Shown: positions 9,594 through 36,131, numbered from the stretch's first letter. The stretch: DNA of 36,366 bases from an uncultured Methanosarcinales archaeon (GCA_964589485.1 CAZPRK010000010.1:1-36366), one strand, 5' to 3'. The notes: generated by a model from the letters alone, not told the origin. Numbers and translations are program-made.

Positions 9594-10148
9594 ATGATTA
9601 AATCTATTATATTTGACCTTGATGGAATGGTTCATAGAGTAAATGAATTATTTAGTGTTTCAATGGCTGAGAAGCACGGAATTAATGTTTTAGATTTCTT
9701 TAATAACGAATATATTGAATGTAGGATAGGAAAATTAGATACTAAAGAAGTGTTAACAAAATATGTTGAAAAATGGAATATGAGTGTTGATGATTTCATT
9801 AAATTATGGAATGACTTTGGATATTTTGATAAAGAAGTTATAAAATTAATATTTAAGTTTAAGGAAAAAAATATTAAATGTATACTTGCAACAAATAATG
9901 TTAAAACACGTATTGAATCTTATGACGAATTAAAAATATTTGATAATGTAATAGCTTCATATGATTATGGAGTTTTAAAGGATGAGTTGTTCCAAGTTCT
10001 TTTAGATATCAGTAATTGTAACAAGGAAGAAATTTTATATTGTGATGATAAAACTGTAGATAAAGCTAATGACTTCGGATTTAAAACTTTCTGGTATAAG
10101 GATTTTGATGAGTTTAGAGAGTTTCTTGATAAAGAAAGGATATTGTGA
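9594..10148 (+). CDS. HAD-superfamily hydrolase
   Basis: IIFDLDG motif I, LATN motif II, YCDD motif IV. Confidence 0.85.
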   Translation: MIKSIIFDLDGMVHRVNELFSVSMAEKHGINVLDFFNNEYIECRIGKLDTKEVLTKYVEKWNMSVDDFIKLWNDFGYFDKEVIKLIFKFKEKNIKCILATNNVKTRIESYDELKIFDNVIASYDYGVLKDELFQVLLDISNCNKEEILYCDDKTVDKANDFGFKTFWYKDFDEFREFLDKERIL

Positions 10149-10151
10149 ATA

Positions 10152-10171
10152 AAAAAGAAAACCTTTAAAAG
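10152..10171 (+). promoter_or_regulatory. BRE/TATA promoter of the tRNA(CAU) gene
   Basis: Purine-rich AAAGAAAA followed by TTTAAAA at 10164-10170, 25 nt before the tRNA 5' end. Confidence 0.6.
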
Positions 10172-10195
10172 TTAATGCTATGTTCTAAACTTAAC

Positions 10196-10415
10196 GGCGG
10201 TGTAACTCAGCCTGGTTAGAGTGCCACTTTCAATTTTATATTGGGGGCAAGGCTCATAAGATTTGAGCTATGATCCTTCGGGAGATGAAGAACTCAAACT
10301 TTAACTGGGTCACGTGGAACTTAGGTTCAGTGAATCTAGGCACGAAAGTCGCGATTTCAAATAGTTGACGAAGACAAGTAATGAAAGCGTCAGCTTGAAT
10401 GTATCGCCACCGCCA
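10196..10415 (+). tRNA. tRNA with CAU anticodon (probably elongator Met; Ile2 not excluded) with four introns
   Basis: Exons 10196-10227, 10252-10258, 10312-10318, 10347-10361 and 10402-10415 join into a 75-nt cloverleaf with all stems fully paired: GGCGGTG TA ACTC AGCCTGGTTA GAGT G CCACG CTCATAA CGTGG AAGTC GCGAT TTCAAAT ATCGC CACCGCC A. Each junction lies in a BHB or BHB-like motif. Confidence 0.9.
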
Positions 10416-10507
10416 TCTTAATTTTATAAATATATCACTGGACACACTGGACAGGTACGCGTGAGATATATAAATGAGTTACTATATTCTATATATTAGG
10501 TGAGGGA

Positions 10508-11350
10508 ATGGAATCAGATAAAGCACTTGTTGTATTTGAAGATAAGAAAATAAGAAGAATTTGGCATAATGGTGAATGGTGGTTTTGTATAAATGATATA
10601 GTTACCATACTTATTGATACTGTTAATGCTTCTGATTATATTAAAAAGCTTAAAATTCGAGATGATGAGTTGAACAAAGGGTGGGGACAAATTGTCACCC
10701 CCCTTTCAATTGAAACATCTGGAGGTGTACAAAAGTTGAATTGTACTTCAACAAAAGGAGCTTTTAGGGTTATTCAATCTATTCCTTCTAAGAAAGCTGA
10801 GCCTTTTAAACAATGGTTAGCTGAAGTTGGTTATGAAAGAATTCAAGAAATAGAAAACCCTGAGCTTGCACAGGATAGAGCTAAAGCATATTATGAACAA
10901 AAAGGATATCCTAAAAGTTGGATTGATAAAAGACTTCGTGGAATTGCTGTTCGTCAAGACTTAACAGATGAATGGAAAAATAGAGGCGTAGAACATAAAA
11001 ATCAATTTTCGATACTTACAAACGAAATTTCTAAGGCAACATTTGGTTTAGATATAAAAGAACATAAAAAAGTCAAAGGTCTTGATCCTAAATTTAAAAA
11101 TAGAAATTTAAGAGATCATATGACTGACTTAGAACTTATTTTTAATATGCTTGGAGAAGCATCAACAACTGAAATTGCAAAGGAGAACGATTTTCAAGGC
11201 TTCAAAGAAAATAAAATTGCTGCAAAAGAAGGTGGGAAAATATCTGGAAATGCTAGAAAAAGCTTAGAGCAAAAAACAAAGAAACAAGTTGTAAGTTCAA
11301 ATAATTATCTCTATCTAAATAATAAAAAGATCAAACAACATAATCAATAG
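10508..11350 (+). CDS. Bro-N domain protein (phage antirepressor/DinD-like family)
   Basis: IRRIWHNGEWWF, RVIQSIPSKKAEPFKQWLA, NLRDHMTDLELIF. Confidence 0.85.
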   Translation: MESDKALVVFEDKKIRRIWHNGEWWFCINDIVTILIDTVNASDYIKKLKIRDDELNKGWGQIVTPLSIETSGGVQKLNCTSTKGAFRVIQSIPSKKAEPFKQWLAEVGYERIQEIENPELAQDRAKAYYEQKGYPKSWIDKRLRGIAVRQDLTDEWKNRGVEHKNQFSILTNEISKATFGLDIKEHKKVKGLDPKFKNRNLRDHMTDLELIFNMLGEASTTEIAKENDFQGFKENKIAAKEGGKISGNARKSLEQKTKKQVVSSNNYLYLNNKKIKQHNQ

Positions 11351-20832: not shown

Positions 20833-20837
20833 TAAAA

Positions 20838-20921
20838 CGCCACGGCCCAGATTTGAACTGGGATATCCCGGAGGAAACAACCTTTCCAGGGTTGCGCGAT
20901 ACCAGATTACGCGACCGTGGC
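20838..20921 (-). tRNA. tRNA-Ser(GGA)
   Basis: GCCACGG/CCGTGGC acceptor, CAACC-CTGGAAA-GGTTG anticodon arm, long variable arm, CCCAG-TTCAAAT-CTGGG, G73, no intron, no CCA. Confidence 0.96.
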
Positions 20922-20997
20922 ATATATAATTGAAAAAAATAACCAACTTATAAATCTATTGCTAAATTATTTAAGTAAACAAGTTTTTTTTTAATTT

Positions 20998-21324
20998 ATG
21001 ATACATGAAATTGTAGATAATTATAAAATTCGTTTATCTTTAGTAGATAAAAATGATTTATTAATTATTGCTAGAAAATCATATGATTCTGCAGAACCAA
21101 AAAATACTGGATCTATTCATCCTGATTTTCAAGATTTTTTAAAATATTCAAATGGAAGACTTATTGGTTTAGAAATGCATACTGTAAATGGAAGAGAATG
21201 TAATACTGTTATTACGCTAGGAGTAGATTCTGCTTTTTATTTTAATACTGATTATTTTAAAAAAAGAGAATCAGAAGGTTTTGAAAGAAATAATCCTTTA
21301 AATTTATTAAAATCTATTTGGTAA
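20998..21324 (+). CDS. Hypothetical protein
   Basis: 108-aa ORF with upstream TATA-like box. Confidence 0.55.
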   Translation: MIHEIVDNYKIRLSLVDKNDLLIIARKSYDSAEPKNTGSIHPDFQDFLKYSNGRLIGLEMHTVNGRECNTVITLGVDSAFYFNTDYFKKRESEGFERNNPLNLLKSIW

Positions 21325-22399
21325 ATTCACGAACATATTCTAATATTTCTTCTTTAGATGCTTCGACAAACTTAATTGTTCCTGCTACATTATGTCCGCC
21401 ACCGTTAACATTTGCGTAAGGAAATTTTTCTTTTAATTCTTTTAACAAAGTATGTAAATTAAATTTTTCATTTTTACTTCTAAAAGTAATAAAATCATTC
21501 CCTATGCCCATTGTTGTTATACCTTCTCCAAAACTATCGTTAGCCCATCCTGTTATTTTCCCTGCTTGAGGAAATTCTCCCCTAAAAGAAATTTTATCAA
21601 GTTCAAGTTCAATAGTCTTATTATTTACTTTTGCATATTTTTTTACAACTTTCATTGTATTTTCTTTTCTTAAATTAATTTCTTTTATTAAAATTTTAAC
21701 TAATTTTTTATCAAACATAATATCTTCAATTAATTTAGAATCTATATGTTTAGTATGATGTGCCATAAAATCAACACAAATTGCAATATCTCTTAATTCT
21801 TCTTCGGAATAATCTTTCAAATATTGTTTAATTTCTAATCCCTCACACCTATCTGAAACTCCAGATAATGAGGCAAATATTTTATCAACTTCACCTATTT
21901 GTGATGCTATTTCATAACATAACATTCCGCTGCAAATATTACTGTCTCCTCCTACTAAATGTGGGTTTATTTGAATATCTACAGTTTTATCAATTTCAGG
22001 GAAAGGATTATGATGATCAACTACAGCAACTTTAGCTTTATTTTGTTTTACAATATTAATAGCCAATAAATCTTCTTCTCCACTTCCATTATCTAAAATA
22101 ATAATTAACGCTTTATTTTGAATTAATTCAATGTCTCTTGCAGCGTCATTTAATTCATAGAATGGAGCTTTACAAGGGTTTCTTCTAAAATAATACCTTG
22201 ATTTAAATCCATGTTTTTCATTTACTAAAGGCAAAATAACATTTTCTAAAGCTAGCCCTGCGCAATATCCATCTACATCAGCATGATGTCTAAGAATAAT
22301 AACATCATTGTTTTTAATAGAATTTTTAATTTCATCAACTAATAAAGCTATTTTATCTTTTAATTTATCTAAAATTTTAGAATTTATTGTGAATTTCAT
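21314..22399 (-). CDS. DHH/DHHA1 phosphoesterase (archaeal RecJ-like)
   Basis: RHHADVDG, LDNGS, VDHH, INPH, GGGH. Confidence 0.9.
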   Translation of the reverse strand: MKFTINSKILDKLKDKIALLVDEIKNSIKNNDVIILRHHADVDGYCAGLALENVILPLVNEKHGFKSRYYFRRNPCKAPFYELNDAARDIELIQNKALIIILDNGSGEEDLLAINIVKQNKAKVAVVDHHNPFPEIDKTVDIQINPHLVGGDSNICSGMLCYEIASQIGEVDKIFASLSGVSDRCEGLEIKQYLKDYSEEELRDIAICVDFMAHHTKHIDSKLIEDIMFDKKLVKILIKEINLRKENTMKVVKKYAKVNNKTIELELDKISFRGEFPQAGKITGWANDSFGEGITTMGIGNDFITFRSKNEKFNLHTLLKELKEKFPYANVNGGGHNVAGTIKFVEASKEEILEYVREFTK

Positions 22400-22436: not shown

Positions 22437-22682
22437 TTAATATCTCCACTCACTATGACCCCATGCAATCATTAGGTCAGTTTTAATGTTTCTAGGAAAA
22501 TCACATCCGCCAAAACAACTTCCAAGCCAAATATACACCTCACAATTAGTTTCTTTTTCTAATTGCATCTTAATTTCTCTTGCTTCGGGTTTCAATCCGT
22601 CAGGTAATTGAATTAAAACCTTTTTAGCTTCATTTTTCTTAATTTCTTCAATTGCCTTTTTTAATTCAAGATCATATCTCAT
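22437..22682 (-). CDS. Stand-alone N-terminal domain of diphthamide synthesis protein Dph2
   Basis: KVLIQLPDGLK, GSCFGGCD (first Fe-S Cys), WGHS; only 81 aa. Confidence 0.85.
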   Translation of the reverse strand: MRYDLELKKAIEEIKKNEAKKVLIQLPDGLKPEAREIKMQLEKETNCEVYIWLGSCFGGCDFPRNIKTDLMIAWGHSEWRY

Positions 22683-23770: not shown

Positions 23771-23920
23771 ATTTAAGGGATATTTTCTTAGTATATAAAC
23801 TTTCCTTTATTAATTACTAGCAAGTAGTTCTAGAATCGAATTAAGATATTAGTATAGTAATTAGGTGAAATATAAAAAAATATTATAGTAAATTAATTAA
23901 CTTTGTTGAAAAGGAATAGC

Positions 23921-24067
23921 TTAATAAAAGCTCTCAACATTCATTAAATCATCTAATTCATTATCATCAAAAGCTTTTCTTGATAACAAATTTCTTAACG
24001 ATTTTTGCTCTTTAGTTTCTCGCATGTTGCTAAGTAAATCTAAATCTTCTTTATTAAATTCGTTCAT
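23921..24067 (-). CDS. Small protein, 48 aa (not in ORF track)
   Basis: MNEFNKEDLDLL...VESFY*; GAGGA RBS; ATGA overlap with upstream ORF. Confidence 0.55.
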   Translation of the reverse strand: MNEFNKEDLDLLSNMRETKEQKSLRNLLSRKAFDDNELDDLMNVESFY

Positions 24068-24228
24068 TTTTTCCTCTTTAAATCTTGTATTTCTCTCTCT
24101 AGAATTGAAATTCTTTCTTGTAATGCATAATTATTATCATTTAGAAAAGTAATCCATTCATATGTTCTGTTTCTTAAAAAAACCATATCGTTTTTTACTC
24201 TGTTAAATGAAACTTGTATTTTTGACAT
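24064..24228 (-). CDS. Small coiled-coil protein, 54 aa (not in ORF track)
   Basis: MSKIQVSFNRVKNDM...LQERISILEREIQDLKRKK*. Confidence 0.6.
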   Translation of the reverse strand: MSKIQVSFNRVKNDMVFLRNRTYEWITFLNDNNYALQERISILEREIQDLKRKK

Positions 24229-24229
24229 T

Positions 24230-24313
24230 CTACCACTTCCGAAAAAATGATCTTATCCAACAATATACTCTCTTAACTCTACTTTCCCTGACATCATATA
24301 CTGTTAATTTCAT
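24230..24313 (-). CDS. Micro-ORF, 27 aa, basic/aromatic
   Basis: MKLTVYDVRESRVKRVYCWIRSFFRKW*; GTGAGGA RBS; TATA box at ~24347-24355. Confidence 0.4.
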   Translation of the reverse strand: MKLTVYDVRESRVKRVYCWIRSFFRKW

Positions 24314-24447
24314 TTTTCCTCACTTGAAAGGAGTAAATTCAGTCACATATATAAATGTTTCTGTTTTTAACAACTAATTAGTGATTAATTATTTCTTCGA
24401 AAAGTATTTAAATTCGTATTTTTTGGTATATCAAAGGGGTGTAGATT

Positions 24448-24925: not shown

Positions 24926-25237
24926 TTGAGGGAAATAATACAAAGCCTAAAGGTGTGTGAAAAAGAATCCACTAAGATTTTAGAAAAGGCTGAAACTGAT
25001 TCTTTGGCTATGGTTGAGAATGCTAAAGAAAAAGCAAAACAAAGCATAGGCAAACTTTATACTAAAATCGAAAATAATAGACAGAAAAATTTGAAAAAAG
25101 CAGAAGCAGAAATCGATGAAGAAATTAAGACATTAAAATCAGACTCTGATAAACAACTAAAATCTCTTGAAACAAGTTTTTCTAAAAATAAAGTGAAAGC
25201 AAAAAAAGAAATTATTAAGGTGTTATTAGGAGATTAA
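24926..25237 (+). CDS. atpH: A/V-type ATP synthase peripheral stalk subunit H (G)
   Basis: Charged helical ~100-aa protein first in operon; AGGTGA RBS, TTG start. Confidence 0.8.
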   Translation: MREIIQSLKVCEKESTKILEKAETDSLAMVENAKEKAKQSIGKLYTKIENNRQKNLKKAEAEIDEEIKTLKSDSDKQLKSLETSFSKNKVKAKKEIIKVLLGD

Positions 25238-25240
25238 TTT

Positions 25241-27160
25241 ATGTTTAGGTCTTCAGATATGCAGAAAGCTAGTCTTTTTGCTGTTTCAAATGAAAGAGAA
25301 AAAGTTTTAAGTAAAATACATGAAACTGGGTTGCTTCAATTAATTGATTTAAAGGGAAGTGATATAGATTTAGAATTATCGAACCCAGGAAGTGAATTAA
25401 AAGAAATTTCTGATAAATTACTTAGAGTTTCTAGATTAGTTACAATTATGAAACTTGCACCTAGAAAGCTTTCTTTTACACAAGAGTTATTTGGTTTAGA
25501 GTTAATGGATAAAGAACATGTAAAAAGAGAAAGTAAAAAAGTAATGATAAAACATGCTGAACAATTTTTAGACAAAAATGAAGAAAAATTATTAACATTA
25601 GAAGAAGAAAATTTAACTTTAAATGAAAAAATTAATGTATTAAATGATCAAAAGAAATTAATTGTATTGTTGACAAACTTAGGAATTCCTTTAGATGAAA
25701 TTCAAACTTCCAATAAAATTTTATTCACATTAGGAAGAATTAATAATATTAATTTAGATAACTTCAAAAAAGATTGTGAAGATGACTTAAATGAATTATG
25801 TCATTTTGATGTTAGAGAAGAAAATAATAAAGAATCAGTTATAACTTTAATTACAGTTAAAGAAGATGAACATAAAGTAAATTTGTTAACTAAAAAACAT
25901 TCACTTTTAACGTTTGCTCTACCAGACTTAGAAAAACCAACAGTTGAATTTGTTGATAATGCGATTGAAACTTCAATCCAAAGAAGAATTAAGTTAATTG
26001 AAGAAATTTCAGAATTTAGAAAGAAAGTATTTGCAAATGCTATTAAATATAGAGAAGAATTAGAACTATTAAAAGAAAAATATGAAGCTATTCATAAAAC
26101 TATGAATTCTGAAAAATTCTTTTTATTAACAGGATGGGTTAGTAAAGAAAATATTAAAAAATTAGAAGATAGTTTGAAAAATTTAGCTGTAATTACTTTT
26201 GAAGACCCTAAGGAAGAAGATATTGTTCCAGTAGAAACAACTAATCCAAGGTGGCTAAAACCATTCGAAGTATTAACTGAATTATATTCTTTGCCAAAGT
26301 ATAAAGATTTAGATCCTACTTTTATTGTTGGTCCAATTTTTGTAATTTTTGCAGGGTTTATGTTAACTGACTTTGTATATGGTTTAGGGTTAGTAGTATT
26401 AGGAAGTTTTCTAATCAAAAAATTTGGCAAGTATAGCCAAGGATTAAATGATATTTCAATTAGCATTTTATTAATTGGAATTTTTTCAATGTTTTTTGGT
26501 GTTTTAACTGGAAGTTATTTAGGAGATATGATGCAATATATTAATCCTAGTTGGACTTCTAAAAATTTAGCATTCTGGGGAGATCCTTTATCAGATCCAT
26601 TATATTTTTTAATTATTAGTTTAGGAGTAGCATTAGTTCATGTAAATGTAGGTTTAATTATGGGTTTAACCGAAGACATAAGAAAAAAAGAATATAAAAC
26701 TGCTCTAGGTGATAGAATAGTTTGGTTTATTATACAAATTGGAATTGCATTATGGGCAACTGGATTTTTAGCTACTTTTGGTAAGATATTATTTGGGTTA
26801 GGTGTATTAATAAAAGTAAGCACAGCTGGTCCACTTGGATTATTAGACATTACAGGTTTTATGGGAGATGTAATAAGTTATTCTAGATTATTTGCATTAG
26901 CTTTGAGTACAGCTGGAATTGCAATGACTGTAAATTTATTAGCAGATTTACTTAGCGGAGTACCTTTTATTGGCTTTTTTTTAGCTGCTTTGATTTTCAT
27001 TGTAGGTCATTTATTTAGTTTCGCAATGAATGCATTAGGTGGTTTTGTTCATAGTATTAGGTTACAGTTTGTAGAATTTTTTGGAAAATTTTATGAAGGT
27101 GGCGGAGATAGATTTTTACCATTTAAAGAAGAAAGAACTTATACTGAGGTTAAAAAATGA
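25241..27160 (+). CDS. atpI: A/V-type ATP synthase subunit I (a)
   Basis: LPKYKDLDPT, GFMLTD, DVISYSRLFAL (essential Arg), HSIRLQFVEFF. Confidence 0.96.
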   Translation: MFRSSDMQKASLFAVSNEREKVLSKIHETGLLQLIDLKGSDIDLELSNPGSELKEISDKLLRVSRLVTIMKLAPRKLSFTQELFGLELMDKEHVKRESKKVMIKHAEQFLDKNEEKLLTLEEENLTLNEKINVLNDQKKLIVLLTNLGIPLDEIQTSNKILFTLGRINNINLDNFKKDCEDDLNELCHFDVREENNKESVITLITVKEDEHKVNLLTKKHSLLTFALPDLEKPTVEFVDNAIETSIQRRIKLIEEISEFRKKVFANAIKYREELELLKEKYEAIHKTMNSEKFFLLTGWVSKENIKKLEDSLKNLAVITFEDPKEEDIVPVETTNPRWLKPFEVLTELYSLPKYKDLDPTFIVGPIFVIFAGFMLTDFVYGLGLVVLGSFLIKKFGKYSQGLNDISISILLIGIFSMFFGVLTGSYLGDMMQYINPSWTSKNLAFWGDPLSDPLYFLIISLGVALVHVNVGLIMGLTEDIRKKEYKTALGDRIVWFIIQIGIALWATGFLATFGKILFGLGVLIKVSTAGPLGLLDITGFMGDVISYSRLFALALSTAGIAMTVNLLADLLSGVPFIGFFLAALIFIVGHLFSFAMNALGGFVHSIRLQFVEFFGKFYEGGGDRFLPFKEERTYTEVKK

Positions 27161-30100
27161 GCATTCCATATTATAGTTATTTACAAACCCAGGGAATTTT
27201 ACAGGAAGCTGTAAATAATATGACAAAGACAGTTGTTGAAACATCTGTTGATTTAAGTAATGTTACAATTAATAATTCAATTACAACTTCTGGAATGTTT
27301 GGTGGTATGTTTAATATTGGGATTGATCCTATGTATTTAGCTATAATAGGAGCAGGTATCGCAGTAGGTGTTTCTGGAATTGCATCAGCTATTGGAGCCG
27401 GAATTGCAGGAAGTACTGGAGCGAAAGCTGTAGCTGAAGATCCTAAACAATTTTCAACTGCATTATTATTTCAAGCTTTACCTCAAACTCAAGGTATTTA
27501 TGGTTTTTTAATTGCAATTTTAATATTATTGGGAGCAGGTGTAGTTGGAACTGTAAAACAAATCACATTAGCTCAAGGTTTAGGTGCTTTAGGTGCTGGT
27601 TTAGCAGTTGGAATTGCAGCAGTTTCAGCAATTGGTCAAGGTATTGCAGCAAGTGCAGGAATTGGAGCAGTAAAAGAAGATAAAAAAATGTTTGGTAAAA
27701 GTATTTTATTCTCAGTTTTGCCAGAAACTCAGGCATTATATGGTTTTATTATTTCTATTTTAATATTAATAGGTGTAGGGTTATTCGGAGCTGTAACAAA
27801 AAATATTCCTGAAGTATTAGGATGGGCTTCAGTTGGTGCAGGTTTAGCAGCAGGTATTGCTGGAATTTCAGCTTTAGGTCAAGGAATTGCGGCAGCCGGT
27901 GGAATTGGAGCTGTATTAGAGAGAAGTAAAGTTTTTGGTAAGAGTATTTTATTCTCAGTTTTGCCAGAAACTCAAGCATTATATGGATTTATAATTGCAG
28001 TATTGATATTAATAGGGTTTGGAATTTTAGGTGTTCCACAATCTGAATTTAATTTAGCTTTAGGAATGTTTGCAATAGCTGCAGGGTTAAGTGTAGGTAT
28101 TTCAGGAATTTCTGCAGTAGGTCAAGGTATGGCAGCTTCAGCCGGTATTGGAAGTATTGCAGAAGATGATAAAATGTTTGGTAAAAGTATTTTATTTTCA
28201 GTCTTGCCAGAAACTCAAGCATTATATGGATTTTTAATTGGAGTTTTAATTTTAGTTGGTGGTGGGTTAATTGGTGGAATAAAAGTTGGCATTACAACTC
28301 CTATAGGTGTTATTGCAATAGGCGCAGCTTTAAGTGCAGGTTTTGCAGCAGTTTCAGCTATAGGTCAAGGTATGTCTGCTTCTTCAGGAATAAAGTCAGT
28401 TACAGAAAAACCAAGTATGTTTGGTAAAAGTATTATATTTAGTATCATTCCTGAAACTCAAGCTTTAATGGGATTTTTAATTGCTATATTATTATTAATA
28501 GGTTCAGGTATTATTGGTTCAGCTAAAGCGGGACTTAGCATGGGCAGTGGTTTAATTGCAATAGGTGCAGGAGTTGCTGTTGGTTTAGCTGCTGTGTCTG
28601 CAGTAGGTCAAGGATATGTTGTAAGTTCAAGTATTACTAACGTTACAAGAAATGCGAAAATGTTTGGTAAAAGTTTATTATTCAGTGTACTTCCTCAAAC
28701 TCAAGCATTATATGGATTTTTAATTGCAATTTTATTATTAGTTGGAGGTGGTCTTGTAGGCGGAGTTAAGTCAGGACTTTCTACTTCAATAGGTTTAGTT
28801 GCAATTGGAGCTGGATTAGCAGTTGGTCTTTCTGCAATGTCAGCAATTGGTCAAGGACTAGTTGCAAGTAGTGCAGTAAATGCAGTTTCAAGAAATAATA
28901 AAATGTTTGGTAAAAGTATTTTATTTTCAGTCTTGCCAGAAACTCAAGCACTATATGGATTTTTAGTAGCTATAATTCTGTTAGTATCAGGTGGATTAAT
29001 TGGTGCTTCATCAACTAGTATTATTACTCCAATGGGAATTGTTGCAATTGGCGCTGCAATTAGTGTTGGGTTTGGAGCAATTTCAGCTATAGGTCAAGGA
29101 ACTTCTGCAGCTAGCGGAGTTACTGCAACTTCTGAAAAACAAAGTATGTTTGGTAAAAGTATTATATTTAGTATTATTCCTGAAACTCAAGCTTTAATGG
29201 GTTTTTTAATTGCAATTTTAATGTTGATTGGTGCAGGGTTAATGGGAAAAATTGCATATTCTATTTCGATAGCTCATGGGGTTGTAGCAGTGGGTGCAGG
29301 TTTTGCTGTCGGTATGGCTGCTATTTCAGCTATAGGTCAAGGGTTTGCAGTTTCAACATCTATTAATGCAGTAACCCAAGATGCAAAAATGTTTGCAAAA
29401 AGTTTATTGTTTTCAGTTATTCCACAAACTCAAGCTTTAATGGGTTTTTTAATCGCAATATTAATATTAATTGGCAGTGGATTAGTAGGAAGTATTAACA
29501 TGGCTATAACTACTGCAAATGGTCTTGTAGCAATAGGTGCAGGATTTGCTGTAGGATTAGGAGCATTATCTGCAGTAGGTCAAGGTTTTGTTATTTCATC
29601 TGCTATAACTACAGTAACACAAGATAACAAAATGTTTGGTAAAGGTTTATTGTTTAGTGTTCTTCCACAAACTCAAGCATTGTATGGATTTTTAGTTGCA
29701 ATTTTACTTCTTGTAGGAGGAGGATTAATAGGCGGAAGTGCTTTAGATTTACATATTCCTGTTGGATTACTTGCAATGGGTGCAGGGTTAGCTGTTGGTT
29801 TAGCAGCAGCTTCAGCTATTGGTCAAGGATTAGTTGCAGGAAGTGGTATAACTGCAGTTAAGGAAGATAATAAAATGTTTGGTAAAGCTATATTGTTTTC
29901 AGTCTTGCCAGAAACTCAAGCATTGTATGGATTTTTAATCGCAATTTTATTATTAGTAGGCGGTGGATTAATAGGTACATTAAATTTAGCATTAACTGTT
30001 CCTTTAGGTTTAGTTGCAATTGGAGCAGGGTTAAGTGTCGGAGTTGCTGCAGTTTCAGCTATAGGTCAAGGTGTAGCTGCAAGTAGCGGTGTTGCTTCAG

Positions 30101-30462
30101 TTCAAGAAAATAGTAAAATGTTTGGTAAAAGTATTTTATTTTCAGTATTACCAGAAACTCAAGCGTTATATGGAACAATAATATCTATTCTTTTAATGAC
30201 TGGTGTTGGTATAATGGGTGTTATTAAATCTGGAGTAACTATGTTACAAGGATTTGGTGCAATAGGCGCAGGATTAGCTATAGGTTTTGCTGCAATATCA
30301 GCATTAGGTCAAGGAATAATTTCAGCAAGTAGTATAGGTGCAAGTTTAAAAGATGCAAAAAGTATGGGTAAAGGATTAGTATTAAGTGTAATCCCTGAAA
30401 CATATGCTATCTTTGGATTATTAATTTCAATTTTAATGTTGTTAGGACTTAAAATAATTTAA
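27157..30462 (+). CDS. atpK: A/V-type ATP synthase proteolipid subunit K (c) with 13 fused hairpins
   Basis: 13 copies of G-A-G-L...SAxGQG...F.K..LF..LP(E/Q)TQA.YGF, between atpI and atpE. Confidence 0.96.
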   Translation: MSIPYYSYLQTQGILQEAVNNMTKTVVETSVDLSNVTINNSITTSGMFGGMFNIGIDPMYLAIIGAGIAVGVSGIASAIGAGIAGSTGAKAVAEDPKQFSTALLFQALPQTQGIYGFLIAILILLGAGVVGTVKQITLAQGLGALGAGLAVGIAAVSAIGQGIAASAGIGAVKEDKKMFGKSILFSVLPETQALYGFIISILILIGVGLFGAVTKNIPEVLGWASVGAGLAAGIAGISALGQGIAAAGGIGAVLERSKVFGKSILFSVLPETQALYGFIIAVLILIGFGILGVPQSEFNLALGMFAIAAGLSVGISGISAVGQGMAASAGIGSIAEDDKMFGKSILFSVLPETQALYGFLIGVLILVGGGLIGGIKVGITTPIGVIAIGAALSAGFAAVSAIGQGMSASSGIKSVTEKPSMFGKSIIFSIIPETQALMGFLIAILLLIGSGIIGSAKAGLSMGSGLIAIGAGVAVGLAAVSAVGQGYVVSSSITNVTRNAKMFGKSLLFSVLPQTQALYGFLIAILLLVGGGLVGGVKSGLSTSIGLVAIGAGLAVGLSAMSAIGQGLVASSAVNAVSRNNKMFGKSILFSVLPETQALYGFLVAIILLVSGGLIGASSTSIITPMGIVAIGAAISVGFGAISAIGQGTSAASGVTATSEKQSMFGKSIIFSIIPETQALMGFLIAILMLIGAGLMGKIAYSISIAHGVVAVGAGFAVGMAAISAIGQGFAVSTSINAVTQDAKMFAKSLLFSVIPQTQALMGFLIAILILIGSGLVGSINMAITTANGLVAIGAGFAVGLGALSAVGQGFVISSAITTVTQDNKMFGKGLLFSVLPQTQALYGFLVAILLLVGGGLIGGSALDLHIPVGLLAMGAGLAVGLAAASAIGQGLVAGSGITAVKEDNKMFGKAILFSVLPETQALYGFLIAILLLVGGGLIGTLNLALTVPLGLVAIGAGLSVGVAAVSAIGQGVAASSGVASVQENSKMFGKSILFSVLPETQALYGTIISILLMTGVGIMGVIKSGVTMLQGFGAIGAGLAIGFAAISALGQGIISASSIGASLKDAKSMGKGLVLSVIPETYAIFGLLISILMLLGLKII
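27331..30453 (+). repeat. 13 diverged tandem coding repeats, period 243 nt (81 aa)
   Basis: P(E/Q)T codons start at 27481, 27721, 27964, 28207, 28450, 28693, 28936, 29179, 29422, 29665, 29908, 30151, 30394 (first spacing 240, all others 243). Confidence 0.95.
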
Positions 30463-30474
30463 GGTGTATAAAAA

Positions 30475-31023
30475 ATGAGCTTAGAAAAAATTAAACAAAA
30501 AATTTTAGATGAAGCAAAAGAAGCTTCAGAAAAAACCAAGTCAGTATATCAAGAAAAAGTTGACGAAATTGTTAGTGACAATAAGAAAGAAATGGAAACA
30601 ATTTCTCAAAAAAAAGACGATGAAATTAATGCAGAAATTGTATTATTTAAAAAAAATGCAATAGCAAGACAAAAGTTATCTTTACAATCAAAGTATTTGG
30701 TAAGAAGGGAAGAGATATTTAATTCTCTTTTAACGGATGCATTGAAAAGTGTTGATGCTAATTTGGTTAAGGAATATATGAAAACTGTTCTTGATGAAAA
30801 TAAAGATTTATCTGGAAAAGTAACAGTAACTTGTTCAAAAGAATATATTGAGTTTGTTAATTCAAATACAAAATTTTCAAATTTTGAAGTAATTGAATCA
30901 AAAGATGATTCTTTTACTATCGCATCTGATTCAGGATTAAGAATCAATGGATCTTTAAATGCGTTAGTTGAAAGAAAAAAAAGTGAATTAAGACAAGGAG
31001 CCATCAAGGCTTTAGGTGTATAA
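30475..31023 (+). CDS. atpE: A/V-type ATP synthase subunit E
   Basis: MSLEKIKQKILDEA helical N-terminus; operon position. Confidence 0.88.
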   Translation: MSLEKIKQKILDEAKEASEKTKSVYQEKVDEIVSDNKKEMETISQKKDDEINAEIVLFKKNAIARQKLSLQSKYLVRREEIFNSLLTDALKSVDANLVKEYMKTVLDENKDLSGKVTVTCSKEYIEFVNSNTKFSNFEVIESKDDSFTIASDSGLRINGSLNALVERKKSELRQGAIKALGV

Positions 31024-31025
31024 AT

Positions 31026-32066
31026 ATGGATGTAGTAGTATTTGGAGCAATTGCAGCTAGTTTAGTTGCAGGAACTGTAGTTATTTGGCCTACTGTGCAA
31101 ATGACAATTGGTTTAGCTCCGCACATTTATGCTAATACTAGATGTAGTGCAAAACTTGCACAATTACTCCCAGATACATTTACAGATAATTTACTTCAAT
31201 CAGTTTCATATGAAGAATCATTATCTTTACTTGAAGATTCTTATTATAGAGTTTATGTAGAAAAGTCAAGAGATTTTGTTAAACTTAGTTCAATGTTAAA
31301 TCAAGATTTATATTTAACGTATCGATGGTTAGAAACAATTGTTCCTGAAAATATGGTTCCAATAATAAAAACACTTAGAATTAAGTTTGAAATTGGTGAT
31401 ATTAAAGAATTGTTTAATAATTTAAAAAATAAAATAACAGAACATAAACTTCCTCATGTTCAAGATGAAAATTTAAAATTAAAGTTAGAAAATACAACTG
31501 ATTTTGCATCATTAATGGCGTCATTTGAAGGAACTGAGTATAGTACTATTTTTGCTAATAAAAATCTTACACAACTCGATAGCATAAATAATGAATTAGA
31601 TAAATTTTATTTTGAAAAAGTTTTTGATGTCATTTCAGCTTCTGAAGATGAAAAAGCAGCAGTGGCATTTAAAGAATATTTTAGTTATTTAGTAGATTTA
31701 ATAAATTTAAAATTAACTCTTCGAAGAATTGATAAAAAATCTTCATTAGATTTATTAGATCATGGAAGAATTTCAAAAGAATCATTAGAAGATATTGAAG
31801 ATTTAAATGCTTTTGAGAATTTATTATCTCAATTTGGTTATAATGAAAATATTGTTGAATATACTCCTTTTGAGATTGAAAATAGCGTATACAAATATAT
31901 GAAGAAAGCTTCAGGGTTAATTAACTCAAAACATAGCTTAAAGTCAGGAAGTGTTGTAAGATATATTATGCTTAAAGAAATTGAAATTAGGAATGTAAAT
32001 ATTATTTTAAAATTAAAGTCAGATAACTTCAATAAAGAAGAAATTCAAAAGGTGTTAGTATTATGA
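31026..32066 (+). CDS. atpC: A/V-type ATP synthase subunit C (d)
   Basis: YANTR, DLINLK..LR, KEIEIRNV; N-terminal hydrophobic segment. Confidence 0.9.
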   Translation: MDVVVFGAIAASLVAGTVVIWPTVQMTIGLAPHIYANTRCSAKLAQLLPDTFTDNLLQSVSYEESLSLLEDSYYRVYVEKSRDFVKLSSMLNQDLYLTYRWLETIVPENMVPIIKTLRIKFEIGDIKELFNNLKNKITEHKLPHVQDENLKLKLENTTDFASLMASFEGTEYSTIFANKNLTQLDSINNELDKFYFEKVFDVISASEDEKAAVAFKEYFSYLVDLINLKLTLRRIDKKSSLDLLDHGRISKESLEDIEDLNAFENLLSQFGYNENIVEYTPFEIENSVYKYMKKASGLINSKHSLKSGSVVRYIMLKEIEIRNVNIILKLKSDNFNKEEIQKVLVL

Positions 32067-32368
32067 TGCAGATTGCTTTAATAGGAGATGAAGATACTAT
32101 TAACGGGTTTATGTTAGCTGGGGTAAAACATAGTATAAAATATAGAGAAGATAAGCTTGAAGAAGATTTGAAAAAATTTTCAGAAGCAAAAGTTTTAGTA
32201 TTTACAGAAAAAGTTGGAGAACAATTAAGAAAAACTGGATTAATTGATAAAATTGAAAATACATATTTAGAAATTCCAGATAAAACTGGTTCAAGTGGCC
32301 AGGCAATGCAAAAAATAAGTAATTTATTTGAGAGTGCAATTGGAATTGCACTAAAAGAAAACGAATAA
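32063..32368 (+). CDS. atpF: A/V-type ATP synthase subunit F
   Basis: IALIGDEDTINGFMLAGV, EIPDKTG. Confidence 0.93.
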   Translation: MMQIALIGDEDTINGFMLAGVKHSIKYREDKLEEDLKKFSEAKVLVFTEKVGEQLRKTGLIDKIENTYLEIPDKTGSSGQAMQKISNLFESAIGIALKENE

Positions 32369-32379
32369 GGTGATTCACG

Positions 32380-34116
32380 ATGGAAGGAAAAATTATCAAA
32401 ATATCAGGACCTGTTGTTGTAGCTTCAGGCATGAAAGGAGTTCAGATGTATGAAGTTGTTAAAGTAGGAGATGAAGGATTAGTTGGTGAAGTAATTGAAC
32501 TTCATGAAGATACAGCGACAATTCAAGTATATGAAGAAACTACAGGGATTGCACCTGGCTCAAAAGTTGTATCTACTGGTGCAAGTTTAAGTGTTGAATT
32601 AGGTCCAGGAATTATAGGTAATATTTATGATGGGATATTAAGACCATTAGATAAAATTAAAGAACAAACTGGAGCATTTCTTGCGAGAGGTGTTGAAGCA
32701 GATTCAATTAACCATAAGAAAAAATGGAAATTTGTTCCAAAATTAAAAAAAGGAGAAGATGTTACTCCTGGAATGATTATTGGAGAAGTAAAAGAAACTT
32801 CAGTAGTTGTACAAAAAATTTTAGTTCCACCTGGTGTAGAGGGTGAACTTAAAAAAATATCAAAGGAAGGAGAATATACTGTAGAAGATGTTGTAGCTGT
32901 TGTAGGCGATACTGATATTAAATTAAGTCAAAAATGGCCGGTTAGAATTCCTCGTCCAGTAATTGATAAATTAGAACCTACTTTACCTTTAGTTACAGGA
33001 ATGAGAATTATTGATACTTTTAATCCAGTTGCAAAAGGAGGAACAGCTTGTACTCCAGGACCGTTTGGAAGTGGAAAAACTGTTACACAACAAAGTATTG
33101 CAAAATGGTGTGATGCAGATATTATTGTTTACATTGGTTGTGGTGAAAGAGGAAACGAAATGACTGATGTATTGCAACAGTTTCCGACTATTAAAGATCC
33201 ACGAACAGGAAAAGCATTACTTGAAAGAACAATTATTATTGCAAATACCTCAAATATGCCAGTTGCAGCTAGAGAAGCTTCAGTTTATACTGGAATTACA
33301 ATTGCTGAATATTTTCGAGACATGGGATTTGATGTAGCTTTAATGGCTGATTCAACATCAAGATGGGCAGAAGCAATGAGAGAAATTTCAGGAAGATTAG
33401 AAGAAATGCCTGGTGAAGAAGGTTATCCTGCTTATTTATCAACAAGGTTAGCTCAATTTTACGAAAGAGCTGGACGTGTAAAAACATTAAATAAAGATGA
33501 AGGAAGTGTTACTGTAATTGGAGCAATTAGTCCACCTGGTGGAGATTTTTCAGAACCAGTTACACAGAATACATTAAGAGTTAATAAAACGTTTTGGGCT
33601 TTAGATAAAAATTTAGCTTCAAGGAAACACTTTCCCGCAATTAATTGGTTAAATAGTTATTCTTTATATTTAGATTCAGTTACTGATTGGTATAAAGATA
33701 ATGCAGGAGATAAATGGCGTGATCTTAGAGATGAAGCAATGAGATTATTACAAAAAGAAGAACAGTTACAGGAAATTGTTCAGTTAGTTGGTCCAGATGC
33801 TTTACCTGATAACGAAAGATTAGTTTTAGAAGTTACTAAAATTATCAGAGAAGATTTTTTACAACAAAATGCTTATCATGAAGTGGATTCATATTGTCCT
33901 TTATCAAAACAAGTATTTATGCTTGAATTAATCTTGGAATGGTTTTCACTTTCAAATGCAAAATTAACTCAAGGTGTAAGTATACACGATATTTCAGATA
34001 TGAAAATAAAGGAAGAGTTAGCGAGAATGAAAGAATTTAATAATGATAAATTCGAAGATCATTATAAAACATTAACAAAACAAATGGCCGAAGAATTTGA
34101 GGCTATGAAGGCGTAG
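32380..34116 (+). CDS. atpA: A/V-type ATP synthase catalytic subunit A
   Basis: [37 protein letters not shown]; no intein. Confidence 0.98.
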
Positions 34117-34129
34117 GAGGCACATTACA

Positions 34130-35512
34130 ATGAAACAAAAAACAATGGAGTATAGTTCAATTAAAGAAATATCAGGTCCTTTAATGATTGTTAAGGGAGT
34201 TGAGGGTGTTGCTTACGGTGAATTAGTAGAAATTCAATCTGAAGATGGTCAAAAAAGAAATGGACAAGTCCTTGAAGCTAAAGATGATTTAGCAGTTGTT
34301 CAAGTTTTTGAAGGAACAAGAGGTTTAGATACTAAACATACATCAGTAAGGTTTACAGGAGAGACAATGAAGATAGGAGTTTCCGAAGAAATGATTGGAA
34401 GAATTTTTAATGGACTTGGAAAACCAATAGATAATAATCCTGAAATAGTTCCAGAAGCTAATTTAGATATTAATGGGCAGGCTATTAATCCTGCAGCTAG
34501 AGAATTCCCTGAAGAGTTTATTCAAACAGGTGTAAGCGCGATAGACGCTATGAGTACTTTAGTAAGAGGACAAAAACTTCCAATTTTTTCAGAAGCTGGT
34601 TTGCCACATAATCAATTAGCAGCACAAATTGCAAGACAAGCAAAAGTTTTAGGAAAAGGTGAAAAGTTCGTTGTTGTTTTTGCAGCAATGGGAATTACTT
34701 TTGAGGAAAGTAAATTTTTTATGAATGACTTTGAAAGGACTGGTGCAATTGAAAATATGGTTGCGTTTATCAATTTAGCAGACGACCCGGCAATTGAAAG
34801 AATTATCACACCTAGAATTGCATTAACAACAGCTGAATATTTAGCTTTTGAGAAAGATATGCATGTATTGGTTATTTTAACTGACTTTACAAATTATTGT
34901 GAAGCTTTAAGAGAAATTGCAGCTGCAAGAAATGAAATCCCTGGGCGAAGAGGATACCCAGGATACATGTATACTGATTTAGCGATGAGTTATGAAAGAG
35001 CTGGTAAGTTAGAAGGTAAAAAGGGAAGTGTTACTCAAATCCCAATTTTAACAATGCCACAAGGTGACATAAGTCACCCTATTCCTGACTTAACTGGTTA
35101 TATTACTGAAGGACAAGTTGTTGTTAGTAATGAATTACATAGAAATGGTGTTTATCCACCGATTGATGTTTTACCATCTTTATCAAGACTTATGAATGAA
35201 GGTATTGGTGAAGGTAAAACTAGGGAAGATCATAGTGGTGTAGCTAACCAGTTATATAGTGCATATGCTGAAGGAAGAGATTTAAGAGATTTAGTTGCCG
35301 TTGTAGGTGAAGAAGCTCTAAGTGAAAGGGATAAAAAAATCTTAAAGTTTGCATCATTATTTGAAAATGAATTTATTCGACAAGCAAATAGTGAAAATAG
35401 AGATGTAACTAAAACTCTTGGAATTGGTTGGAAATTATTAGGAACCTTACCAGAAAAAGAGTTAAAGAAAATTAAACTTGAGCACATTTCAAAATATTAT
35501 CCAAAGAAGTAA
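34130..35512 (+). CDS. atpB: A/V-type ATP synthase subunit B
   Basis: [37 protein letters not shown]. Confidence 0.98.
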
Positions 35513-35513
35513 A

Positions 35514-36131
35514 ATGGCATCAAAAACTATAATTGCAACACGTATGGAGCTGTTAAAGCTTAAGAAAAAGATTAAGCTAGCTCAGAAAGGACATAAACTT
35601 TTAAAAGAAAAAAGAGATGCTTTAATTGGTGAATTTTTTACTTTAATGGAAGGGTTAAAAACTCAAAGAAAAGATGTAGATTACGCTTTAGAAAAAGCAT
35701 TTAAATCTTTAAGTTTATCTACAGCTATTTCTGGATCTGATGAAATTAAGCGTGCAGCTTATTCTACTGATGAAATGGGTGAAATTGTCCAAAAGAAAAA
35801 TACAATTATGGGAGTTAGTGTTCCTATTTTTGAATTTGAATCTAAAATTGATAGAAAGTATAGTCATTTGTCAACTAATGTTGAGTTAGATACAGCTTCA
35901 AGATATTTTGATAAAGCTCTTAATAAAATGGTAAAATTAGCTGAACTTGAAGCAACTGCTACAAAGTTAGCTGATGAAATTAAAAAAACTAAACGTAAAG
36001 TAAATGCATTAGAACAAAGGTTAATTCCTAACTTGAATAAAGATATTATTTACATTAAAATGCGTTTAGAAGAAATGGAAAGAGAAAATTTCTCTAGATT
36101 AAAAGTTATTAAGAAGAGAATTGAAGCGTAG
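35514..36131 (+). CDS. atpD: A/V-type ATP synthase subunit D
   Basis: TRMEL, GHKLLKEKRDAL, IKKTKRKVNALE, ERENFSRLK; start at ATG 35514 just after the atpB stop. Confidence 0.96.
   Translation: MASKTIIATRMELLKLKKKIKLAQKGHKLLKEKRDALIGEFFTLMEGLKTQRKDVDYALEKAFKSLSLSTAISGSDEIKRAAYSTDEMGEIVQKKNTIMGVSVPIFEFESKIDRKYSHLSTNVELDTASRYFDKALNKMVKLAELEATATKLADEIKKTKRKVNALEQRLIPNLNKDIIYIKMRLEEMERENFSRLKVIKKRIEA

Follow-up and report, generated by a model that had tools for sequence, protein, structure and literature searches.

A co-linear tRNA(CAU) gene with four introns at BHB motifs and two 7-nt micro-exons in a probable DPANN archaeon

The 36,366-nt stretch of DNA that we analyzed, hereafter the window, contains a 359-nt gap between open reading frames (ORFs), inside which a 220-nt segment of the plus strand (10196..10415) can be read as an interrupted tRNA gene. 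The G+C content reaches 38% in this gap and 55% in the exons described below, against 28% for the window. A preliminary description of this DNA had called the segment a single tRNA(CAU) gene with introns at positions 30/31, 37/38, 44/45 and 59/60 and two micro-exons of 7 nt, and the sequence, the geometry and the relatives of the gene all agree with that call. Five exons of 32, 7, 7, 15 and 14 nt join to 75 nt, and the introns, of 24, 53, 28 and 40 nt, account for 145 of these 220 nt, that is to say the 66% that had been announced. Exon 1 (10196..10227, positions 1-30) supplies the 5' strand of the acceptor stem, the D arm and the first 4 nt of the anticodon stem. The two micro-exons follow, all features being on the plus strand: exon 2 (10252..10258, positions 31-37), which bears the anticodon CAT at 10255-10257, and exon 3 (10312..10318, positions 38-44), which provides the 3' strand of the anticodon stem. 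Exon 4 (10347..10361, positions 45-59) brings the variable loop, the 5' strand of the T stem and most of the T loop. Exon 5 (10402..10415, positions 60-73) brings the 3' strands of the T and acceptor stems and the discriminator A; it does not encode the CCA.

When the four intervening segments are removed, the joined exons are recognized by ARAGORN as one gene, tRNA-Met(cat), with an anticodon loop and a T loop of 7 nt each and with the acceptor, D, anticodon and T stems all fully paired, so that the 75-nt cloverleaf initially proposed is indeed obtained. The spliced molecule displays the usual D-loop GG and T-loop TTC, and its length is normal, being that of 25 of the 25 related genes presented below. 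Since the five exons are contiguous and in order at one locus, within 220 nt, a split or a permuted tRNA gene is ruled out.

It had also been anticipated that standard scanners would miss such a gene, which was borne out for ARAGORN, with or without its intron option, and for Rfam. On the window DNA, the sole ARAGORN call was a tRNA-Ser at 20837-20922, the only other tRNA of the window and one devoid of intron, and the intron option returned no call for 10100-10520. At gathering scores, Rfam found the same tRNA-Ser alone in the window and missed 10196..10415; at E values up to 10, the region 9800-10800 gave nine weak matches, none of them to a tRNA and all below gathering scores.

The name given by ARAGORN depends on the anticodon alone, and CAU is common to elongator tRNA-Met and tRNA-Ile2. 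Archaeal initiator tRNA-Met is characterized by an A1:U72 end pair and, at the base of the anticodon stem, by a run of three G:C pairs. The tRNA of the window has instead a G1:C72 pair and an A:T pair in the middle of this stem, and an initiator tRNA is thus ruled out by these criteria. The sequence most likely corresponds to an elongator tRNA-Met, but may also be a tRNA-Ile2.

Upstream of the gene, a TATA-like box TTTAAAA lies at 10164..10170 (plus strand), from -32 to -26 relative to the first tRNA base, and is preceded by an A-rich stretch; we regard it as a putative promoter. Similar A/T-rich words, judged by eye, are found at a comparable distance in about 8 of the 10 DPANN-type relatives, loci L014 and L010 having none. 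Directly 3' of the gene, a T-rich tract at 10416..10427 (plus strand), with TTTT at 10422-10425, is likely to act as an archaeal terminator.

We then scored each exon-intron junction as a BHB motif, in which the four exon bases preceding the 5' bulge pair with the four intron bases preceding the 3' bulge, each bulge measures 3 nt and cleavage occurs after the second base of the bulge. Helix lengths are given below as central/exon h/intron h' and were counted with the other introns removed; a class (hBHBh', hBH or HBh') was assigned when at least one flanking helix had at least 2 bp. Intron 1 (10228..10251, plus strand, 24 nt, position 30/31) is a strict hBHBh' motif of 4/3/6, with a central helix 10222-10225/10246-10249, an exon helix 10219-10221/10253-10255 and an intron helix 10229-10234/10240-10245. 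Intron 2 (10259..10311, plus strand, 53 nt), at the canonical position 37/38, is hBH-like with 4/5/1: its central helix is formed by 10253-10256/10306-10309, its intron helix is offset by an internal loop, and its exon helix is the anticodon stem itself, which is available only once introns 1 and 3 have been removed. Intron 3 (10319..10346, plus strand, 28 nt, position 44/45) is a relaxed HBh' motif of 4/0/9, in which the central helix 10313-10316/10341-10344 is accompanied by a 9-bp hairpin (10320-10328/10332-10340) and the exon helix is lacking. Intron 4 (10362..10401, plus strand, 40 nt, position 59/60) is again a strict hBHBh', with 4/5/8; its central helix is 10356-10359/10396-10399, its exon helix is the T stem (10351-10355/10403-10407) and its intron helix is 10363-10370/10388-10395.

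The central helix is thus paired at 4/4 positions between 3-nt bulges at all four junctions. These are the helices TGCC/GGCA, CTCA/TGGG, CGTG/CACG and TTCA/TGAA of the preliminary description, and its statements that cutting after the second bulge base yields exactly the required exons, that introns 1 and 4 are strict and that introns 2 and 3 have one weak flank all held at the four junctions with the counts given above. The absence of an exon helix for intron 3 and the offset intron helix of intron 2 imply that the enzyme must tolerate relaxed motifs. Such an arrangement is not expected by chance: when segments of the four lengths were placed throughout the window, 4115 of 145159 placements (2.8%) had 4/4 central pairs, and only 19 (0.013%) combined a 4/4 centre with both flanks of at least 3 bp. 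Bases repeated at the junctions allow 18 equivalent placements, among which only the BHB placement gives 4/4 at each junction, and the joint chance of 4/4 at the four junctions is at most about 1.2e-5. As to a possible spread of the introns by transposition, blastn-short searches against the window and the 25 related loci returned below E = 0.1 nothing other than self matches, the rest being chance words.

Relatives of the gene were collected by scanning public species-representative genomes with tRNA positions 10-30 (bases 10205-10227), which gave 25 loci, none of them the window's own; this sample, selected for its identity at positions 10-30, is neither random nor complete. Fifteen of them share a different acceptor stem and come from Hydrothermarchaeota, from records labelled Methanobacteriota and, for two, from records labelled only 'archaeon'. 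By their titles, the other ten belong to Woesearchaeota (six), Nanoarchaeota (two), Altiarchaeota (one) and, for the locus that we call L015, an 'uncultured Methanosarcinales'. Most of these genes (21 of 25) have a single intron, at 37/38, and one (L014) has none. The three remaining ones have two introns each, at 37/38 and 44/45 in L011 and at 37/38 and 59/60 in L015 and L016. An intron is therefore found at 37/38 in 24 relatives, at 44/45 in one and at 59/60 in two, and three of the four sites of the window gene are common to relatives. The 30/31 intron, found in 0 of the 25 related genes, is unique to the window gene.

At the shared sites, the BHB classes of the relatives match those of the window. 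The 44/45 intron of L011 is 28 nt long, exactly as intron 3, with 4/0/6, and the 59/60 introns of L015 (30 nt) and L016 (29 nt) score 4/5/8 and 4/5/0, respectively. For the 37/38 intron, the central helix is paired at 4/4 in 20 of 24 relatives and at 3/4 in the other four, and the intron helix is reduced to 1 bp in six of the 24, as in the window. The likeness of the 44/45 and 59/60 introns of the window to their counterparts in L011 and L015 lies mainly in the bases constrained by the motif, and the shared sites may reflect either common descent or repeated gain. The insertion sites were also recovered without any motif information, since a MAFFT alignment of the unspliced genes separated four insertion blocks with respect to the intron-less L014; the block for intron 1 corresponds exactly to 10228-10251, and the other three fall at the same sites within 1-2 nt, junction bases being repeated there.

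After splicing, the window gene and its 25 relatives give 26 sequences that are all 75 nt long and all recognized as tRNA-Met(cat) over 1-75, the 17 extra wrap-around calls made by ARAGORN on this set being due to its circular default. Identity to the window is 75/75 for L015, 73/75 for L001 and L013, 71 for L011 and L019, 69/75 for L014 and 62-66 for the others. Twenty-three of these bases belong to the search pattern and are identical by construction, so that the informative part is made of the other 52, and 52/52 of them are identical between the window and L015. The differences with L001 and L013 lie at paired positions of the T stem and preserve the pairing. The micro-exon exon 2 is invariant in 8/8 rows of our alignment A1.

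In L015, the nearest relative that we found, the tRNA gene lies between a metallophosphoesterase gene and a flavodoxin-like gene, as it does in the window. The flanking proteins of the two genomes are only 56% and 46% identical, and the introns of the two tRNA genes differ in number, length and sequence. The full conservation of the exons next to proteins diverged to this extent argues that every exon, both micro-exons included, is under purifying selection. This conservation, together with the TATA-like word and the T-rich tract, suggests that the gene is probably functional and not a relic.

One could nevertheless suppose that the locus is a decaying tRNA pseudogene in which insertions have accumulated, an intact tRNA(CAU) gene elsewhere serving the cell. 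That the locus is invisible to ARAGORN and Rfam, and that the 30/31 insertion has no counterpart in 25 relatives, would be in keeping with such a decay. On the other hand, one would have to explain why the exons are identical to the spliced L015 gene despite the divergence of the neighboring proteins, why the four insertions all fall exactly at BHB motifs (4/4), why three of the four sites are common to relatives whose genes look equally intact, and why a TATA-like box has been kept at the expected distance. We consider a pseudogene to be improbable on these grounds.

The host itself is probably a DPANN archaeon of the Nanoarchaeota/Woesearchaeota type, judging from the labels of the closest tRNA relatives and from the homologues of an ATPase rotor protein encoded in the window, of which the named ones belong to Nanoarchaeota/Nanobdellota at 64-66% identity. 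The L015 record (9.2 kb, 26% G+C) bears the title Methanosarcinales, in disagreement with the other close relatives, which are labelled Nanoarchaeota/Woesearchaeota; this record may have been wrongly binned or labelled.

We also analyzed the folding of the 220-nt precursor. Its minimum free energy (MFE) is -74.9 kcal/mol (z = -4.88), and 0 of 200 shuffled sequences fold as well. The BHB motifs of introns 3 and 4 are present in full in the MFE structure (13/13 and 17/17 pairs), with a probability of 0.92-0.96 for the central helix of intron 3. The motif of intron 1 (BHB1) is absent from the MFE structure of the full precursor, where its central-helix pairs have a probability of 0.07-0.36; for the motif of intron 2 (BHB2), the probability of the central helix is 0. 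BHB2 has to compete with another pairing, of 13 bp, which binds the D arm (10210-10222) to the 3' portion of intron 2 (about 10298-10310) and dominates the MFE structure of the precursor as well as that of the one-intron intermediate. This complementarity is not obviously conserved in L001, and it could be due to chance, be a folding trap or represent a regulatory alternative. As a control, we folded single-intron precursors, and the MFE structure missed the 37/38 central helix in 10 of 10, ordinary one-intron relatives included; MFE folding is thus uninformative as a test of BHB2. The cost of imposing the canonical fold is 3.4 kcal/mol for the window, compared with 0.9-9.6 for the other precursors.

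The low probability of BHB1 and the unusual shape of intron 3 raise the question of whether some of the insertions are introns at all. Class II tRNAs carry an arm in the variable region. A 9-bp hairpin located in this very region, next to a junction without exon helix, could be viewed as such an extra arm, retained in the mature molecule, and the 24-nt insertion at 30/31, whose BHB is not the favored conformer of the full precursor, could similarly be retained. However, the window and L011 both keep four intron bases that pair with positions 39-42, as well as the two bulges of 3 nt, the intron being otherwise different, and a variable arm would need neither these four bases nor these bulges. 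As for the 30/31 insertion, 24 nt kept within the anticodon stem would break the stem, and intron 1 possesses a full strict motif, with 4/3/6. We thus find it hardly likely that any of the four insertions is retained. Finally, an assembly or binning artefact producing chimeric joins within a tRNA gene, which might be feared from a window that is probably metagenome-assembled (as we infer from its close relatives, which are all MAGs), is very improbable, given that the five exons are ordered and together complete, that three intron sites recur in independent assemblies, that synteny with L015 extends to the genes on either side and that chimeric joins would not generate four BHB motifs.

Altogether, we estimate at roughly 85% the probability that 10196..10415 represents a single, co-linear and functional tRNA(CAU) gene in a DPANN archaeon, most likely encoding elongator tRNA-Met, whose four introns are cut by the splicing endonuclease EndA at BHB motifs and whose exons are then joined by a tRNA ligase. 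No gene for EndA or for the ligase was found among the 34 ORFs of the window, which were compared with Pfam; the nine left unnamed by Pfam were run again at a looser threshold, and these nine and three others were also compared with NCBIfam.

How such a precursor could be matured is suggested by the geometry of the motifs, as each 7-nt micro-exon gives bases to both of the BHBs adjacent to it. Bases 10253-10255 belong to BHB1 through its exon helix and to BHB2 through its central helix, and bases 10313-10316 belong likewise to BHB2 (exon helix) and BHB3 (central helix). It follows that the two BHBs flanking a micro-exon cannot exist in the same conformer. Moreover, intron 1 interrupts the anticodon stem in its 5' strand, and the 3' strand of this stem (10313-10316) is engaged in the central helix of intron 3; as the motif of intron 2 needs the anticodon stem, which introns 1 and 3 block, the canonical intron is expected to leave last. 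We propose that transcription would be driven from the TATA-like box at 10164-10170 and that the BHBs of introns 3 and 4 would form readily in the primary transcript, with BHB1 as an alternative conformer. The removal of introns 1 and 3 would allow the anticodon stem to form and to complete the canonical BHB2, after which intron 2 would be removed. At each step EndA would excise the intron at its BHB, and the tRNA ligase would join the exons. The mutual exclusion of the motifs would prevent a micro-exon from being released by simultaneous cuts at its two ends.

The canonical intron contains one further feature. K-turns are made of a canonical stem, a 3-nt bulge and a juxtaposition of tandem G-A/A-G pairs. 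A K-turn-like module is located at 10270..10288 (plus strand) in intron 2 and consists of ATGA, a 3-bp stem (10274-10276/10281-10283) closed by a 4-nt loop, and GATGA. Of the 25 genes with an intron at 37/38, seven show the same pattern, namely the window gene, L001, L011, L013, L015, L016 and L019, with a consensus of ATGA or ACGA, a short hairpin and GATGA or AATGA. The stems of these seven modules have five different sequences that are always complementary, in other words compensating changes have occurred. The K-turn sequence pattern is matched in the window and in six DPANN-type relatives, terminal C and D boxes not being conserved, and the module has the look of a K-turn or of an internal box C'/D' motif.

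In box C/D-guided methylation, the target nucleotide is the one that faces the fifth base upstream of the box. In 7/7 genes, the bases just upstream of the first box of the module can form 5-7 contiguous pairs with tRNA positions 30/31-35/37, C34 being opposite the fifth base upstream in 7/7 genes as well. When the register is shifted, the run becomes shorter in six of the seven genes, L019 reaching 6 at +2. The guide-like bases also pair within the intron, and the duplex is short (5-7 bp). The module may thus be a minimal intron-borne methylation guide or a binding site for L7Ae, an idea to be taken as a lead only. The register facing C34 leans weakly towards Met rather than Ile2 for the identity of the tRNA. 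C34 of tRNA-Met is a known guide target in Pyrococcus (PMC7994747). We considered and ruled out a full box C/D guide, as there is no C box at the 5' end of intron 2; a D-box-like word at its 3' end, seen only in some relatives, is merely the strand that pairs with the anticodon loop.

A parallel can be drawn with the tRNA-Trp intron of Euryarchaeota, a box C/D guide for C34 methylation that, like intron 2, occupies the canonical position and carries boxes forming K-turns (PMC7994747, PMC7714728). Intron 2 differs from it by possessing only one K-turn-like module, with a short complementary run and without conserved terminal C/D boxes, and the likeness remains a resemblance only.

With respect to the number of introns, the preliminary description had suggested that four could be a record. 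The maximum quoted in the tRNAscan-SE 2.0 paper (PMC8450103) and in a 2015 review (PMC4390854) is indeed three per tRNA gene, a figure that four exceeds. However, a bioRxiv preprint of October 2026 (10.64898/2026.10.13.758758) gives for Asgard tRNA genes a mean of 2.2 intervening sequences and 'up to five in a single gene', which refutes the suggestion. In three Asgard genomes, Valentin-Alvarado et al. (2024) already described more than half of the tRNA genes as multi-intron (PMC11291895). Within the literature that we searched, largely open full text without supplements, we found no tRNA gene with four introns, either in DPANN or elsewhere; the one mention of 'four introns' that we met counts introns at a single tRNA position. 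Four introns are unusual, then, and not an archaeal record.

The classical multi-intron tRNA genes are those of Thermoproteales such as Pyrobaculum calidifontis, which, as presented in PMC8450103 and PMC4390854, are likewise co-linear, mix strict and relaxed motifs at canonical and non-canonical BHB introns and, as here, have introns packed so tightly that a motif can form only after the removal of a neighboring intron. They reach at most three introns per gene, against four here, and belong to crenarchaea, whereas the probable host here is a low-G+C DPANN archaeon. The Asgard genes of the 2026 preprint (10.64898/2026.10.13.758758) resemble ours by the presence of several introns per gene, many of them non-canonical and partly missed by annotation, and by their detection through compact relatives. 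That work is a computational census of another superphylum, with up to five introns per gene; the present case is one gene, and the other tRNA of the window is intron-free. A third comparison comes from the nuclear tRNA genes of Cyanidioschyzon merolae (PMC3728597), whose introns, three at most, likewise occupy both the arms and position 37/38. There, RT-PCR showed that the flanking introns leave before the 37/38 intron, an order that is only inferred for the window gene, and the nucleus and the enzyme are eukaryotic. Nearer to the probable host, since it concerns the same superphylum, the study of Kaneta et al. (2018) links an extra loop in DPANN EndA to increased disruption of tRNA genes and notes that incomplete tRNA sets point to undetected disrupted genes; we came across no four-intron gene there (PMC5829648). 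Genes of this sort have been poorly catalogued in the lineage, and the window provides an example of unusual fragmentation.

A more ambitious hypothesis would combine these elements. The gene would be the most fragmented co-linear tRNA gene yet seen outside Asgard. Its three added introns, at 30/31, 44/45 and 59/60, would leave first, without a micro-exon ever being freed on both sides, and the old canonical intron would leave last. The latter would have been kept across the DPANN lineage owing to its K-turn module, a minimal L7Ae-binding, box C'/D'-like half-guide that would position C34 of elongator tRNA-Met for 2'-O-methylation before splicing. Taken as a whole, this reading is rather unlikely, and we put it forward as a speculation.

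If the gene is what we propose, heavy interruption of tRNA genes at multiple sites would extend beyond Thermoproteales and Asgard to the small-genome DPANN archaea, with a count of four, beyond the 'up to three' that the tRNAscan-SE 2.0 paper still gives (PMC8450103). As such genes are invisible to common scanners, an elongator tRNA-Met missing from DPANN bins may reflect a gap in annotation and not a loss, and this gap would affect both estimates of completeness and claims of host dependence. Orthologous tRNA genes with 0, 1, 2 and 4 introns would also offer a compact natural series for studying the gain and loss of BHB introns. Lastly, micro-exons of 7 nt raise the question of how the endonuclease and the ligase avoid losing very small exons.

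Several other features of the window deserve to be mentioned. Immediately 3' of the tRNA gene, an ORF (10508-11350, plus strand) contains a Bro-N domain (Pfam, 3.2e-13), of a type typically found in viruses and mobile elements, and has a weak DinD-like match; by tblastn, the syntenic interval of L015 lacks this ORF. Just upstream of the ORF, at 10436-10453, 9 nt are perfectly duplicated in tandem. We looked for an integration scar at the tRNA gene and rejected it, as the 14-mer of exon 5 has no second copy in the window at up to 2 mismatches, hence no att-like repeat.

Farther along the window, an 81-aa ORF on the minus strand (22437-22682) matches only the first 64-81 positions of Dph2 diphthamide-synthesis models of about 310 aa, and it is either a split gene or a truncated remnant; a gene for a HAN/RecJ-like nuclease (21314-22399) comes directly after it. 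The interval 23771-24447 (677 nt, 25% G+C) has no ORF of at least 70 aa and no Rfam match at gathering scores. The ATPase rotor protein mentioned above is encoded inside an A-type ATPase operon (24926-36131) by one ORF of 1101 aa (27157-30462, plus strand) with 13 ATP-synt_C repeats according to Pfam, and its DNA has a period of 243 nt with a 70-78% match between repeats. Fifteen other matches to this protein, with at least 83% query cover, have 63-87% identity and lengths of 983-1139 aa, and the Methanopyrus proteins stand at 45%. This ORF looks like a whole rotor ring fused in a single polypeptide.
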